64,000 nucleotides of DNA from Nitrospirota bacterium (GCA_016212185.1 JACRGX010000069.1:673-64672); one strand, 5' to 3'; shown: positions 7,871 to 51,537, numbered from the stretch's first letter. Numbers and translations: made by a program. The notes: a model not told the origin generated them from the sequence alone.

Positions 7871-8747
7871 AAAAAAATCCACTCTCAGAATCGGCAAAAT
7901 TCCGTATGCCAATTTGTTTCCTATTTATCACTATCTTGAGGACAAATGCAGAAATGCAGGATATAAGTTTGTCAAAGGTGTGCCGTCCGCACTGAATAAA
8001 AAGCTGAGAGATGGGGAAATAGACATAAGTCCGTCGTCATCCATAGAATTTTTAAAATGCAGAGATAAATATTCAATCGTACCGTGGCTTTCTTTAAGCG
8101 CCGAAGGCCCTGTATGCAGTATTTTTTTATTTTCAAAATACCCGTTGGAATCGCTTGATAATAAAACCATTGCAGTTTCTTCCCAGTCTGAAACTTCCGT
8201 CGCTCTGCTTAAAATTATTCTCAGGGATTTTTATTCACTCAAGTGCAAATTCACAGAAGTAAACAGCAGTTCTGTCAGAAAGATACTTTCTGATTTTTCC
8301 GCCTGCCTGCTTATCGGAGACGATGCGATGAAGGCGAGAAAGGCCGTAGCCGGCAAGGATGAAGGAACAAAGCTGAAGGATGAAAAACAACTTCTTCATA
8401 ATTCAACTTTCAACCTTCAACCTTCAACCCTCCATGTTTACGACCTTGGTGAATTATGGTTTAAACACACAGGCCTGCCGTTTGTATTTGCACTCTGGAT
8501 TGTAAAGAAGAAGACCCTTTCTGAGAAAAAAGAGCTTATCATAAGCTTCACATCTGATTTAGTTCGGGCGAAGGAGTATGCATACAAAAAATTTTCCCTA
8601 ATTGCAAAACATGCATCCCATAAGAAATGGCTTAGTGAAAAAGAACTTGTTCAGTACTGGAAATGCATTTCGTATGATTTTACGGACAGGCATATGAAAG
8701 GGCTTTGCTTGTTTGAGAGGCATGCACTTGGTAAAAAACGTTTTTAA
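7836..8747 (+). CDS. mqnA: Chorismate dehydratase MqnA (futalosine menaquinone pathway, DUF178/PBP-like)
   Basis: RIGKIPYANLFPIYHYL...GVPSALNKKLRDGEIDISPSSSIEF and C-terminal LPFVFALW. The start is uncertain: GTG at 7836 lies inside the word array. The CDS carries an in-frame repeat insertion at 8354-8433. Confidence 0.75.
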   Translation: MPIKASKCQSVRKKSTLRIGKIPYANLFPIYHYLEDKCRNAGYKFVKGVPSALNKKLRDGEIDISPSSSIEFLKCRDKYSIVPWLSLSAEGPVCSIFLFSKYPLESLDNKTIAVSSQSETSVALLKIILRDFYSLKCKFTEVNSSSVRKILSDFSACLLIGDDAMKARKAVAGKDEGTKLKDEKQLLHNSTFNLQPSTLHVYDLGELWFKHTGLPFVFALWIVKKKTLSEKKELIISFTSDLVRAKEYAYKKFSLIAKHASHKKWLSEKELVQYWKCISYDFTDRHMKGLCLFERHALGKKRF

Positions 8748-8770
8748 ACACACGCCTCTTAATGAAGGTA

Positions 8771-8930
8771 ACAAAGGCATATATCCCTTCAAAACTTTAA
8801 GAATACAACCATAATTATTATCTGTCATGCTGCAAAAAGTTTTAAGCATTTGCTTTCTGAACTATTTGTAAAAAGGCAGCATGACATTTAAGGTGTTGCC
8901 TTAAAGTTTTTCAGGCACACATGCCTTTGT
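8771..8930. mobile_element. MITE-like element, about 160 bp, copy A
   Basis: Terminal inverted repeats acaaaggcatatatcccttcaaaactttaagaatacaac / gttgccttaaagtttttcaggcacacatgcctttgt. Inner inverted repeat gtcatgctgc / gcagcatgac. No ORF. Confidence 0.7.
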
Positions 8931-8953
8931 TATATATTGCTTTTAATACAGCG

Positions 8954-9739
8954 TTACTTCAGCGCATTTAACGCTTTTCTGTGAAGTAATTCATTTGCTG
9001 ATGCAAGGATAGGGGAAATCTTCTCAATACCGACGGGAATCTTATCTAAGCTTTTTCCGTCTAAATCTGTAACAATCCCGCCGGCTTCTTTGACAAGCAG
9101 ATAACCTGCCGCAAAATCAAAACTCCTTGACGGCGAGGGTGTTATAAACATACTGACTGCGCCCTGAGCAAGAAACGACATGTCAAGGGCAGTTGAGCCG
9201 AGGCATCGTGTCCTGTGGAAAAGGGAGAACAGGGGCATGATTTTTGGAATGTCGGTTTTCGGTGTTTGAGCCTCATAAGCGATTACACGGCACAAATCAT
9301 CCTGCTGAGTTTTAATTGACACTCCATTTATGAAACTACCGCCGCCCTTTACTGCCCAGAATTCATCTCCATTAATTAAATTTATCACATAACCTAATTT
9401 GGTATGTTCAAGCGTATCACCTTCAATGACTGCGATTGATGTTGAAAACAAAGGCAGTCCTGATACCGCATTTTTACTTCCGTCAATGGGGTCTATCAGA
9501 AGTTTCAAACCGCCGCCTTTTATGTCTTTAAATCCATATTCTTCTGATATGATTGTAACGGGCTTGTTGATTTTTTCTATTTCCTCAAAGATTATTTCTT
9601 CGGCGCACTTGTCAATGGGATATGTCTTGTCGCCGCCTGCGCCTTTGCCGAGGGGCGCGCCTCCGTAAAATTTCTGCACAAGCGGAGGAAGCTCCTGCCG
9701 CAGGCGTCTGCCGATTTTTCTTAAATCCTCTATATCCAT
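8954..9739 (-). CDS. Inositol monophosphatase / fructose-1,6-bisphosphatase family protein
   Basis: Metal-binding motifs IISEE and LIDPIDGSKNA, plus a C-terminal FDFAAG region typical of IMPase-fold enzymes. Confidence 0.8.
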   Translation of the reverse strand: MDIEDLRKIGRRLRQELPPLVQKFYGGAPLGKGAGGDKTYPIDKCAEEIIFEEIEKINKPVTIISEEYGFKDIKGGGLKLLIDPIDGSKNAVSGLPLFSTSIAVIEGDTLEHTKLGYVINLINGDEFWAVKGGGSFINGVSIKTQQDDLCRVIAYEAQTPKTDIPKIMPLFSLFHRTRCLGSTALDMSFLAQGAVSMFITPSPSRSFDFAAGYLLVKEAGGIVTDLDGKSLDKIPVGIEKISPILASANELLHRKALNALK

Positions 9740-48819: not shown

Positions 48820-48903
48820 AATACCTCCTGTAGTAAATAAGAAATAAGAACTGAGAACTGAGAAATAGGAACTGAGAACTTGTGTGACGTTCCTAAATTC
48901 GCT

Positions 48904-48970
48904 GTCATTCCTGCGAAAGCAGGAATCCAGTAAAAACATGTGTCTGGATTCCCGTTTTCACGGGAATGAC
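48904..48970. repeat. Nested palindromic element, GTCATTCC family, copy 6
   Basis: gtcattcctgcgaaagcaggaatccag-taaaaacatgtgt-ctggattcccgttttcacgggaatgac. Flanked by GAGAACT word arrays at 48828-48880 and 49000-49050. Confidence 0.85.
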
Positions 48971-49062
48971 AAAAAACAATAGCAAAAAGCTTTTGGAGCA
49001 TTACACTGAGAAATGAGAAGTGATAACTAAGCACTAAGAACTGAGAAGTGTCATTTAATTTC

Positions 49063-50736
49063 TTATTTTTCATTTTTCATTTCCCATTTCTTAGTGTGCG
49101 TGAAAAGCAATTTCTTTTCCCTGTACGCTGCCCCGACAAAAGCCTTGAACACAGGGTGCGGCTCTAAAGGTCTTGATTTGAATTCAGGATGGAATTGGCA
49201 TCCTAAAAACCATGGATGCTCCTTTATTTCAACTATCTCAACAAGCTGATTGTCAGGACTAGCGCCGCTTATTTTCAAACCTTTCCCTGTGAGATTTTCT
49301 CTGAACGCATTATTAAATTCATATCTGTGTCTGTGCCTCTCGGAGATCTCTGCCATTCTGTAAGCGTCATGCGCAAATGAGTCTTTTGAAATCACGCAAG
49401 GATAAGCGCCGAGCCTCATGCTCCCGCCTTTTTCAGAGGTGACGTCTCTTTTTTCTATTGCCATTTTTCTGAAGTCATACCACTCTGACATAAGATAAAT
49501 CACCGGGTAGGGGGTATTCTCATCAAATTCAGAGCTGTTTGAGCCTTTCATGCCGCAGACATTACGTGCAAACTCTATTACTGCGCACTGCATGCCGAGG
49601 CAAATACCTAAAAACGGGATCTTCTTCTCCCTGGCAAGCCTTATTGCTTCAATCTTTCCTTCAATCCCCCTCTCTCCAAAACCGCCCGGGACAAGGATGC
49701 TGTCAACATCCAGGAGATACTTATCGGCGCCGTGTTTTTCTATTTCCTCGGCGTTAATCCACTGTATGTCAACACCAACCTCATTGGCAATGCCGCCGTG
49801 AATAAGCGCCTCAATCAGACTTTTATAAGAGTCCTTAAGTCCCACATACTTTCCCACTATCGCAACTGTTACAGTATCATCAGGCTCTTTGATTTTTCTA
49901 ACGACCTCTGACCATTTATTAAGGTCAGGTGGGACTGATATGGGCAAAAGCTTTTTGGCAATTAAATCGTCAAGACCTTCCTGCCTTAAGGCAAGGGGAA
50001 CTTCATAAATAGTGTCAACGTCCCTTGCAGTGATGACCGCATCTATATCAAGATTGCAGTGGAGGGCTATTTTCCTTTTGACCTCCGGAGGCAGTAATCT
50101 GTCTGTCCGGCAAAGGAGTATGTCAGGCTGGATACCTATCTCCCGCAGCTCCTTTACGCTGTGCTGGGTCGGCTTGGATTTAAGTTCGCCCGAAGTTTTT
50201 ATATAAGGAACTAAAGTAAGATGGACATACAGAACCTGATCTCTTCCTACGTCATACCTGAACTGCCTTATGGCCTCAAGAAACGGAAGGCTTTCTATAT
50301 CACCGATGGTTCCGCCGATTTCCACAATGACAATGTCGTAATCGCCTGATACGGATTTTATGGCATTTTTTATCTCATCTGTAATGTGAGGGACGACCTG
50401 CACGGTGTCGCCGAGATAATCACCACGCCTTTCCTTTGAAATAACGCTGTAATAAATCTTTCCGGTCGTAAAATTGTTAGCCTGTGAAGAGCGTGAGGAT
50501 GTAAATCTCTCATAGTGTCCGAGGTCCAGGTCAGTCTCAGCGCCGTCGTCCGTGACAAAAACCTCTCCGTGCTGGAAAGGACTCAGTGTCCCGGGGTCCA
50601 CATTGATGTAGGGATCTAATTTCTGAATAGTTACCTTAAGCCCCCTGGCCTCAAGCAGGGCGCCCATTGCCGCAGATGCAATTCCTTTCCCCAGGGAAGA
50701 AACAACGCCGCCTGTCACAAAGATGAATTTAGCCAT
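49063..50736 (-). CDS. pyrG: CTP synthase
   Basis: [19 protein letters not shown] and GATase domain GICLGMQ...HRHRYE. Confidence 0.95.
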
Positions 50737-51537
50737 TTAGTTGATATGCCACCGCCTTTCTGCTTTTTTTAAGTCTTCTGCCGTATCAATGCCGAATGTA
50801 TCATAAGGGGTTTCTTTTACCTTGATTTTCATGCCTGAGGCAAGCGCCCTGAGTTGTTCAAGCTTTTCAGTGAGTTCAAGTTTGTCAGGCGGCATTGAAG
50901 CAAACTTGAACAGGACGTCTTTTCTGTAGCCATATATGCCGATATGCTTGTAACAGCCGTAATGCGTGATGGGTAATGCGTGATGAGTTGAATCTGAAAT
51001 TTGAAATTTGTCCCGAATAAGTCGGGATGAAATTTTCCAGAGGTCTCTGTTATATGGAATTGGCGCCCGTGAGAAATACATGGCAAAACCCTCATTGTCA
51101 AAAACAACCTTAACCACATTGGGAGATAAAATTTCTTCCGGATCCGTTATCTTCTTTGCGAGGGTGCTGATTGAGGCGCGCGAATCATCTGACAGAAGTC
51201 TTACAACATCATTCACCATCTCCGGCATGATAAACGGTTCATCCCCCTGAACATTTACGACTATATCGCAGTCTATACTGCCGGCAGCCTCTGCTATCCT
51301 GTCTGTGCCTGACTGGTGCTTCTCAGAAGTCATGACAACTTTTCCGCCAAACCCCAGGACTGTATCATAGATTTGCTTGCTATCAGTTGCAACAAGGGTG
51401 GTATTTATTGAATTCGCAGACGCAGCATGTTCGTAAACCCATTGGATAATTGGTTTTCCTTTAAGAGAGGCAAGGGGCTTGCCGGGGAACCGGGTGGAGT
51501 TAAAGCGAGCCGGAATTATTACAGCCGCCCTGTGCAT
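50737..51537 (-). CDS. kdsB: 3-deoxy-manno-octulosonate cytidylyltransferase
   Basis: IIPARFNSTRFPGKPL, VNVQGDEP and IGIYGYR. In-frame repeat insertion at about 50957-51036. Confidence 0.9.
   Translation of the reverse strand: MHRAAVIIPARFNSTRFPGKPLASLKGKPIIQWVYEHAASANSINTTLVATDSKQIYDTVLGFGGKVVMTSEKHQSGTDRIAEAAGSIDCDIVVNVQGDEPFIMPEMVNDVVRLLSDDSRASISTLAKKITDPEEILSPNVVKVVFDNEGFAMYFSRAPIPYNRDLWKISSRLIRDKFQISDSTHHALPITHYGCYKHIGIYGYRKDVLFKFASMPPDKLELTEKLEQLRALASGMKIKVKETPYDTFGIDTAEDLKKAERRWHIN

Follow-up and report, generated by a model that had tools for sequence, protein, structure and literature searches.

In-frame repeat segments in variable loops of five housekeeping proteins of a groundwater Nitrospirota

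How do small repeats come to lie inside conserved enzymes, and how do those enzymes survive them? The question is raised by a 64-kb stretch of DNA (the window, 87% coding) within a 67.4-kb contig of a Nitrospirota metagenome-assembled genome (MAG), in which repeats that are otherwise found between genes run in frame through mqnA, slt, lolD, pmbA (twice) and kdsB. The host belongs to a Thermodesulfovibrionia-like groundwater clade of free-living Nitrospirota. The window is matched over most of its length, at 88-92% DNA identity, by a sister MAG (GCA_016207865.1, named 'Nitrospirae bacterium isolate NC_groundwater_1558...') together with several metagenome contigs. The sister-MAG loci used for comparison were L001 (pmbA), L003 (slt), L004 (window positions 47402-47541) and L006 (31052-31094); the other compared loci were L002 (pmbA region), P0128 and P0129 (kdsB), P0248 and P0249 (mqnA) and L022 (heptosyltransferase). 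Gene identity was taken from NCBIfam models for slt, lolD, pmbA and kdsB, and from Pfam PF02621 together with similarity to solved chorismate dehydratases for mqnA. The explanation that we consider likely is that small repeats insert and slip, and that selection filters the copies within genes into permissive loops.

The six in-frame segments reported in an earlier note on this DNA are all present, and the open reading frames (ORFs) that carry them are intact:

8355-8438, + strand: hairpin of heptamer arrays in mqnA (about residues 174-201), arrays from Tandem Repeats Finder
20923-21030, + strand: element in slt (residues 264-299), CAGAAYC heptamer arrays on either side of the hairpin CCTGCCTACCGGACAGGCAGG
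26767-26800, + strand: solo octamer array in lolD, AGGGGTCA x4.25, encoding SRGQGVKGS
34151-34237, - strand: mini hairpin of inverted octamer arrays in pmbA (site 2, about residues 355-383), AGGATTCA / AGGGGTCA, a loop, then TCGAATCC / TTGAACCC
34966-35012, - strand: perfect C/G-run palindrome in pmbA (site 1), AAATCCCCCCCATCCCCCCTTTG, one base, then the reverse complement, encoding NPPHPPFDKGGMGG
50959-51042, - strand: hairpin in kdsB (AAATTTCATCCCGA, CTTA, TTCGGGACAAATTT) followed by a 14-nt tandem duplication CATCACGCATTACC (about residues 166-193)

Five of about 57 ORFs in the window (9%) are affected, a figure that describes this window and may not hold genome-wide. A peptide-signature scan of all window ORFs gave no further clear case. 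The same inserts were retrieved from independent assemblies (NCBI, ENA, JGI and Logan).

In the chorismate dehydratase gene mqnA (7836-8747), AAGGATG-type heptamers, a loop and six copies of TTCAACC add about 22-30 residues relative to S. coelicolor MqnA (7AHR) and the Pfam profile, and the HMMER alignment with 7AHR is interrupted at residues 168-199. The RNA of this insert folds at -22.6 kcal/mol (z -3.2), and in relatives at 82-84% identity the arrays in the loop are different or shorter. In the lytic transglycosylase gene slt (20135-22387), a 33-residue segment is missing in 13 of 13 distant orthologues (35-50% identity), and the sister MAG (L003) is 45 nt shorter at the insert site. A heptosyltransferase gene on L022, an independent contig, has the core of the slt element too, in frame, and next to it a C/G palindrome that is also in frame; that protein has about 22 extra residues relative to E. 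coli RfaF (1PSW). The L022 gene (about 330-440, Hainich groundwater) is a GT9 heptosyltransferase-HAD phosphatase fusion with two in-frame repeat sites.

The nine residues encoded by the array in lolD (26424-27122) face a gap in E. coli LolD (7V8L and 7ARH) and are an insertion relative to all solved LolD/MacB-type ATPases and the NCBIfam profile; the comparison covered the solved structures, the profile and the sister MAG. The sister MAG has the same array with one synonymous change. On the sense strand the array matches a (GGGG N4)x4 G-quadruplex motif, as a fit of sequence only. In kdsB (50737-51537), the hairpin arm TCGGGACAAATTT is identical to an arm of the intergenic hairpin at 18300-18333, 32 kb away, and the insert adds 11-17 residues relative to solved KdsB structures. 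P0128 and P0129 (88% and 83% identity) diverge from the window gene precisely at the insert point, and one of the two has a 'PPISKGG' palindrome-type insert in place of that of the window. The sister MAG carries a kdsB insert unlike that of the window. The KdsB structure model (mean pLDDT, predicted local distance difference test, of 60) was too low in confidence to position the insert, and the alignment to solved structures was used instead.

In pmbA (33884-35299), sister MAG L001 is without both inserts. At site 1, the L001 loop is ancestral and like that of distant orthologues, and L002 has the palindrome, which has 23-nt arms and folds at -45.3 kcal/mol (z -6.3) in the window. A terminator scan did not call this palindrome as an internal intrinsic terminator, and sliding identity gave a weak local signal of recombination for the palindrome common to the window and L002. 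At site 2, the window is 60 nt longer than L001 and encodes 33 extra residues relative to E. coli PmbA (5NJ5). L002 has a different composite here, with 105 nt extra made of AAGTCAG heptamers and a nested C/G palindrome, and five other orthologues have a 'PPSLVIARDEVPKQSH...ARNDR' segment, known at the peptide level only. In the AlphaFold model of PmbA, pLDDT is below 50 at residues 99-112 and 357-388, which are exactly the two inserts, both modelled as coil between segments of higher confidence.

These loops are variable far beyond the sister MAG. Loop lengths were obtained from the 87-110 nearest homologue clusters in which both flanking anchors were found, and they range over 9-64 residues at pmbA site 2, 4-33 residues at pmbA site 1 (9 in 71 of 97 sequences), 13-56 residues in kdsB and 9-51 residues in mqnA. 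The kdsB lengths cluster at 19, 26 and 33, that is, in 7-residue steps (three heptamers). Outside the hot-spot loops the proteins are nearly indel-free; one to three loops are used per protein, and in structure alignments every insert falls at a gap or variable loop. Among the products found in the loops, the C/G palindrome accounts for 'NPPxPPFxKGGxGG' and the CCGGACAGGCAGG hairpin for 'TGQAG', and the 'PPSLVIARDEVPKQSH...ARNDR' segment occurs as well; in many clusters, heptamer or octamer arrays give peptides that repeat every 7 or 8 residues (QESGVRSQESG and QNTEHRTQNTD, for example). Because one loop can hold the products of several unrelated elements, each loop must have been colonised several times independently. 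The claim that the segments are lineage-specific is borne out by the orthologue alignments, which show polymorphism even among relatives at about 90% DNA identity. Two points go beyond the earlier note: the same loops are filled by different repeat families in many relatives, and the variation comes partly from local expansion and contraction of arrays, besides insertion.

The window contains 21 period-7 and 7 period-8 arrays, against 0.05 and 0.15 in shuffled sequence, and the same census found no period-5 or period-6 arrays. About 22 of the 28 arrays are intergenic or at gene edges. Every family found within a gene has intergenic relatives in the window, so that the description of the inserted families as otherwise intergenic is true of each. 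The copies outside the six inserts are as follows:

7724-7811, no strand: largest intergenic octamer array (AGTGTCAG/A, about 10 copies), between divergent genes
7843-7871, + strand: octamer array (TCAAAGYG / AGTGTCAG) that continues the array at 7724-7811 and forms an apparent N-terminal extension of MqnA
13011-13115, no strand: two intergenic C/G-run palindrome copies upstream of uvrC, read from sequence
18300-18333, no strand: perfect intergenic hairpin GGAAATTTGTCCCGAA / TTCGGGACAAATTTCC of the kdsB-insert family, folding at -26 kcal/mol (z -5.6)
22993-23085, no strand: intergenic hairpin of the octamer family, AAGGGGTC arrays and GAACCCTC arrays
31052-31094, no strand: intergenic solo arm of the octamer family, different by one 8-nt unit from sister MAG L006
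33783-33879, no strand: hairpin built of AAAGGCAC octamer arrays, lying between pmbA and the PGPGW gene that converges on it, missing in L002
47402-47541, no strand: full-length intergenic element of the octamer family, 140 nt, whose terminal inverted repeats consist of AGGGGTCA-type words and enclose an internal hairpin
49054-49090, - strand: heptamer array over the 3' end of pyrG (49063-50736), from which the gene takes its stop codon and a non-conserved C-terminal tail of about 15 residues

The 140-nt element at 47402-47541 folds at -44.5 kcal/mol (z -5.4) and is cleanly missing in sister MAG L004, a presence/absence polymorphism. The same holds for a copy of a second family: 10784-10939 is missing in the sister MAG, where just the palindromic target is left. 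Both elements are small, have inverted ends and contain no ORF. The second copy belongs to a separate MITE-like family (MITE, miniature inverted-repeat transposable element) of about 150 nt, seen at 8767-8926, 10784-10954, 16393-16530, 27163-27321, 28737-28870 and 33300-33333, with ends TCAAAACTTTAGAAAGC... and ...CTAAAGTTTTTCA that are set within an AGGCATATATGCCT-type palindrome.

Why the reading frames survive was judged from the indels between genes. In comparisons of the window with its relatives, the ratio of nonsynonymous to synonymous substitution rates (dN/dS) is 0.09-0.25 for lolD, pmbA, kdsB, pyrG and slt, so the genes are under purifying selection within the 64 kb and its relatives, and the possibility that they are pseudogenes was rejected. 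Intergenic indels of at least 6 nt (43 in all) fall 11/16/16 across the three classes of length modulo three; multiples of 7 (14 of the 43) and of 8 (9) are in excess, single-unit steps included. With no bias between genes towards multiples of three, the preservation of frame within genes is attributed to selection, and a built-in multiple-of-three rule was rejected. The earlier note had offered either strong selection or an insertion mechanism with length constraints, and the evidence favours the first of the two. On the two points on which that reading could have failed, lineage specificity and pseudogenes, both outcomes favour it.

The composition of the arrays carries the same filter. Since neither a 7-nt nor an 8-nt unit is divisible by three, an array passes through all three codon phases, and so a word can survive only if it brings no stop on the coding strand. 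On the sense strand AGGGGTCA has no stop in any phase, and its complement TGACCCCT contains TGA; in the second arm at pmbA site 2, units are altered (TCGAATCC, CCGAACCT, TCAAACCC) or have TGA out of frame. Hairpins within genes are mostly degenerate (z -1 to -3), as against z of about -5 between genes.

The sequence of events that we propose would run as follows. Small non-coding repeats of several families would have colonised the genome: short A/T-G/C hairpins, C/G-run palindromes, free arrays of 7- or 8-nt words, and MITE-like elements with inverted ends made of 8-nt words. The repeats would insert at new sites, and the arrays would also grow and shrink by slippage in steps of one unit. Most copies would persist between genes alone; a copy within a gene would persist only if the net change in length is a multiple of three, its frame is free of stops, and it lies in a tolerant surface loop where the peptide it adds is flexible and rich in Pro, Gly, Ser, Gln or Lys. 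In such permissive loops (one to three per protein), families would come and go, nest in one another and displace one another within short evolutionary distances, and the remainder of each enzyme would stay under purifying selection. What is observed directly comprises the elements and their intergenic relatives, the polymorphism of presence and absence, the position in loops, the purifying selection and the missing bias towards multiples of three between genes; we infer a mobilising enzyme and the translation and neutrality of the inserts. Insertion combined with local slippage is the best-supported mechanism: the clean absence of the 140-nt element in the sister MAG, the polymorphic 150-nt family and the identical cores in unrelated genes speak for insertion, and the unit-step differences between relatives, with the growth of AAGTCAG from L001 to L002, speak for slippage.

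A number of observations weigh against this account. At pmbA site 1, 51 nt have replaced 36 nt, with no clean insertion, and the stem (22-23 bp) is identical in the window and L002 although their background differs by about 10%, which hints at constraint or between-arm correction over pure neutrality. At pmbA site 2 the step from L001 to L002 resembles in-place expansion of an existing AAGTCAG seed; array words differ widely between loci, and some of the 'insertions' may have arisen in place. Occupancy of a single loop exceeds 80% per protein, above what simple tolerance predicts. No transposase or REP-associated tyrosine transposase (RAYT; REP, repetitive extragenic palindromic) was found in the window among ten scanned ORFs (the unannotated ones plus mqnA, including aldehyde dehydrogenase, PF0610-like, ZapA, ZapB, PIN-domain and PGPGW proteins). 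The flanks of 47402-47541, TAATTTTTT / TTATCTTTT, gave the single candidate for a target duplication, an imperfect and ambiguous one of 9 bp, and none is visible at the sites within genes. With no transposase and one ambiguous target duplication, true transposition is unproven. Translation of the inserts would follow from the reading frames, with ...IPNPPHPPFDKGGMGGILVLD... as an example of a predicted insert-junction peptide.

The strongest rival, although an unlikely one as a full account, dispenses with insertion: slippage in 7-8-nt steps would build and remodel arrays in loops already free to vary. It draws on the words that differ by locus, on close relatives that stand one or two units apart (7, 8 or 14 nt), on the L001 seed that looks expanded in L002, on the kdsB loop lengths at 19, 26 and 33 residues, and on the heptamer-favouring slippage proposed previously (PMC4679880). 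Slippage is, however, unable to make the reverse-complement second arm of a hairpin. Nor does it sit well with a kdsB arm identical to that of an intergenic hairpin 32 kb away, a C/G palindrome nearly unchanged across unrelated genes and contigs, an slt core that is also in a heptosyltransferase gene, or a 140-nt element with inverted ends that is cleanly present or absent. Slippage most likely acts on top of insertion and not in its place.

About equally doubtful is a reading in which elements are targeted, or home, into existing hairpins, arrays or DNA structure, so that loops become self-renewing hypervariable cassettes, and/or in which hairpins and G-quadruplex or GGA arrays within genes are kept as mRNA signals. 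The pointers to it are the occupancy of single loops above 80%, the unrelated families at the same codons, the conserved pmbA stem and the adjacent or nested elements.

It is improbable that the inserts have been retained for a function, the hot spots then reflecting targeting or positive selection and not tolerance, with the inserts serving as mRNA signals or useful surface peptides. Stable hairpins, G-quadruplexes and GGA-rich protein-binding arrays are possible candidates for such signals. The perfect stem at pmbA site 1 would fit, as would the lolD array, kept with synonymous change only and matching a four-tract G-quadruplex motif, the very high occupancy of the one to three loops per protein ever used, and the existence of four-unit-preferring, G-rich heptamer arrays as a known distinct class (PMC4692102). 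Against this, family, length and sequence vary among close relatives, some of which have no inserts; most hairpins within genes are degraded relative to those between genes; the inserts are predicted to be disordered; and no conserved peptide or structure is common to the genes. Decaying pseudogenes or errors of assembly and annotation, conceivable in a MAG with its possible collapsed repeats and with some ORFs called too long through arrays at their N-termini (eno, deoA and zapA), are hardly credible given dN/dS of 0.09-0.25, intact frames, full-length family matches and the presence of the inserts in independent assemblies.

Insertion with slippage, followed by selection, is our preferred explanation, and several further observations on the repeats accompany it. 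At the gene edges, the sole canonical in-frame start of mqnA, as read from sequence, is the GTG at 7836, and P0248 and P0249 translate the N-terminal octamer segment too. Arrays across gene 3' ends give new C-terminal tails and stop codons in pyrG and the PGPGW gene: the NCBIfam CTP synthase match of pyrG stops at residue 542 of 557, and the C-terminus of the PGPGW ORF is lengthened by the array at 33783-33824 (112 residues against 89-90 in relatives). A seventh coding insert, in enolase (48835-48880), was considered and rejected; the true enolase start lies at about residue 41 of the longest ORF, and the heptamer array upstream of eno is therefore noncoding. The longest ORFs of eno (47542-48939), deoA (27316-28716) and zapA (23052-23369) start 20-43 codons upstream, inside repeats, and these starts would probably be mis-annotated, with family matches that begin downstream.

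Other palindromes were seen in and around the window. The palindrome GATTCCTGCTTTCGCAGGAATGACA lies upstream of eno at 48895-48925 and is found again in sister MAG L006, within an insertion of 105 nt at window position 31008. The near-perfect palindrome GACAGCGGCGCATATATATGCGCCGCTATC at 37814-37843 is inside a pilin-like ORF, with no indel relative to relatives. Two tRNA genes are in 18300-18408 and 19945-20017, and the hairpin at 18300-18333 stops 3 nt before the first. Sister-MAG contig L003 lacks a region of 1.65 kb (12558-14211) that takes in two small ORFs and the palindrome copies as well as the 5' end of uvrC, through either a deletion or an assembly join. GGA or AGGA is part of many array words (AAGGATG, AGGATTCA), as at 33219-33246, 8355-8384, 6493-6520 and 34202-34228, and, as an idea by analogy, such words recall the repeated CsrA-binding motifs of CsrB-type RNAs.

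The C/G palindrome (ATGAAAATCCCCCCATCCCCCCTTTGNCAAAGGGGGGATGGGGGGATTTTCAT) is also found within a larger, near-identical element, made of TAACCCCCATG, the hairpin, and then ACAACGAAGCATG ... CATATAAA. This element is on nine JGI metagenome contigs (L008, L009, L012-L017 and L020) with GC contents of 0.43-0.61, a spread that suggests an element of wide distribution, either mobile or functional. Rfam gave no match in the six loci scanned of these nine. The hairpins were also considered as a known RNA family, a candidate that was rejected: Rfam returned the two window tRNAs and a thiamine pyrophosphate (TPP) riboswitch in one metagenome locus.

Among the closest known systems are the Rickettsia palindromic elements (RPEs), with which the earlier note had compared the inserts. 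R. conorii has about 1,370 genes. RPE-1 to RPE-10 are likewise multi-copy, hairpin-forming and non-autonomous, are intergenic as well as in frame in unrelated housekeeping genes, and give proteins peptide segments that are apparently compatible with fold and function (PMC10969869). A 2024 review treats them as the extreme case of in-frame MITE insertion, with 44 insertions in metabolic genes over the whole R. conorii genome (PMC10969869). The resemblance is therefore good as a functional analogy, and membership of the RPE family is not supported, as length, sequence, family number and host differ. RPEs measure about 100-150 bp, and the peptide that each encodes is conserved, whereas the inserts here are 27-108 nt with no common peptide and differ from the RPE consensus as judged on inspection; the hosts of RPEs are obligate intracellular alphaproteobacteria and not free-living groundwater Nitrospirota. 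At least four unrelated families are present here, tandem arrays of 7- or 8-nt words among them, in line with the earlier description of them as different from RPEs and more diverse. Moreover, 9% of the window ORFs are affected, compared with those 44 metabolic-gene insertions genome-wide, and the same loops hold different families in different relatives.

The arrays themselves resemble the short tandemly repeated repetitive (STRR) sequences of cyanobacteria and the TAACTGA repeats of Beggiatoaceae (giant sulfur bacteria), which are abundant 7-nt tandem arrays, mostly intergenic and often just upstream of starts, with many word variants and variable unit numbers (PMC4679880). Correspondingly, 7- and 14-nt indels are seen here relative to relatives, and GAACTGA and AACTAAG words lie upstream of eno in the window. 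STRRs are, however, essentially intergenic: of 24 mapped Microcystis repeat sets two are intragenic, both in small hypothetical ORFs (PMC4679880). Here the arrays are in frame within conserved enzymes (heptamers in mqnA and slt, octamers in lolD and pmbA), are often inverted pairs that form hairpins, and have octamers as prominent as heptamers. The G-quadruplex-forming GGGNATC arrays of Xanthomonas and Nostoc are likewise tandem words rich in G, and they favour four units, the number of AGGGGTCA units in lolD; such arrays are enriched between co-directional ORFs and depleted in coding regions (PMC4692102). In contrast, the unit here is 8 nt and one word of many, most of which are not G-rich, and the lolD copy is coding.

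MITEs, REPs and bacterial interspersed mosaic elements (BIMEs), including the enterobacterial repetitive intergenic consensus (ERIC) and other enterobacterial small mobile sequences, are small non-autonomous palindromes of which some copies lie in frame within genes (PMC10969869, citing Delihas 2007), and the 140-nt element at 47402-47541 is like a MITE in its inverted ends and possible target duplication. In those systems intragenic copies are rare exceptions, and the inverted ends here are tandem word arrays. REPs and BIMEs with a RAYT (Y1 transposase) gene in the genome are imperfect palindromes of 20-40 nt that are strictly extragenic; palindromes are present here too, some of them intragenic. 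No earlier description was found in literature searches on Nitrospirae or Thermodesulfovibrionia with in-frame, palindromic, MITE or heptamer repeats.

The survival of selfish repeats in frame in essential enzymes would be no peculiarity of Rickettsia, and would extend, at a higher local density and with several families, to free-living Nitrospirota. The hot-spot loops reveal where KdsB, PmbA, MqnA, LolD and Slt tolerate 10-50 extra residues, and peptides such as 'NPPxPPFxKGGxGG' and 'QESGVRSQESG' will mislead gene-start calls, orthologue alignment and insertion statistics in the MAGs of this clade. Tandem arrays of 7- and 8-nt words could, in addition, build new peptide in steps of 7-8 residues.

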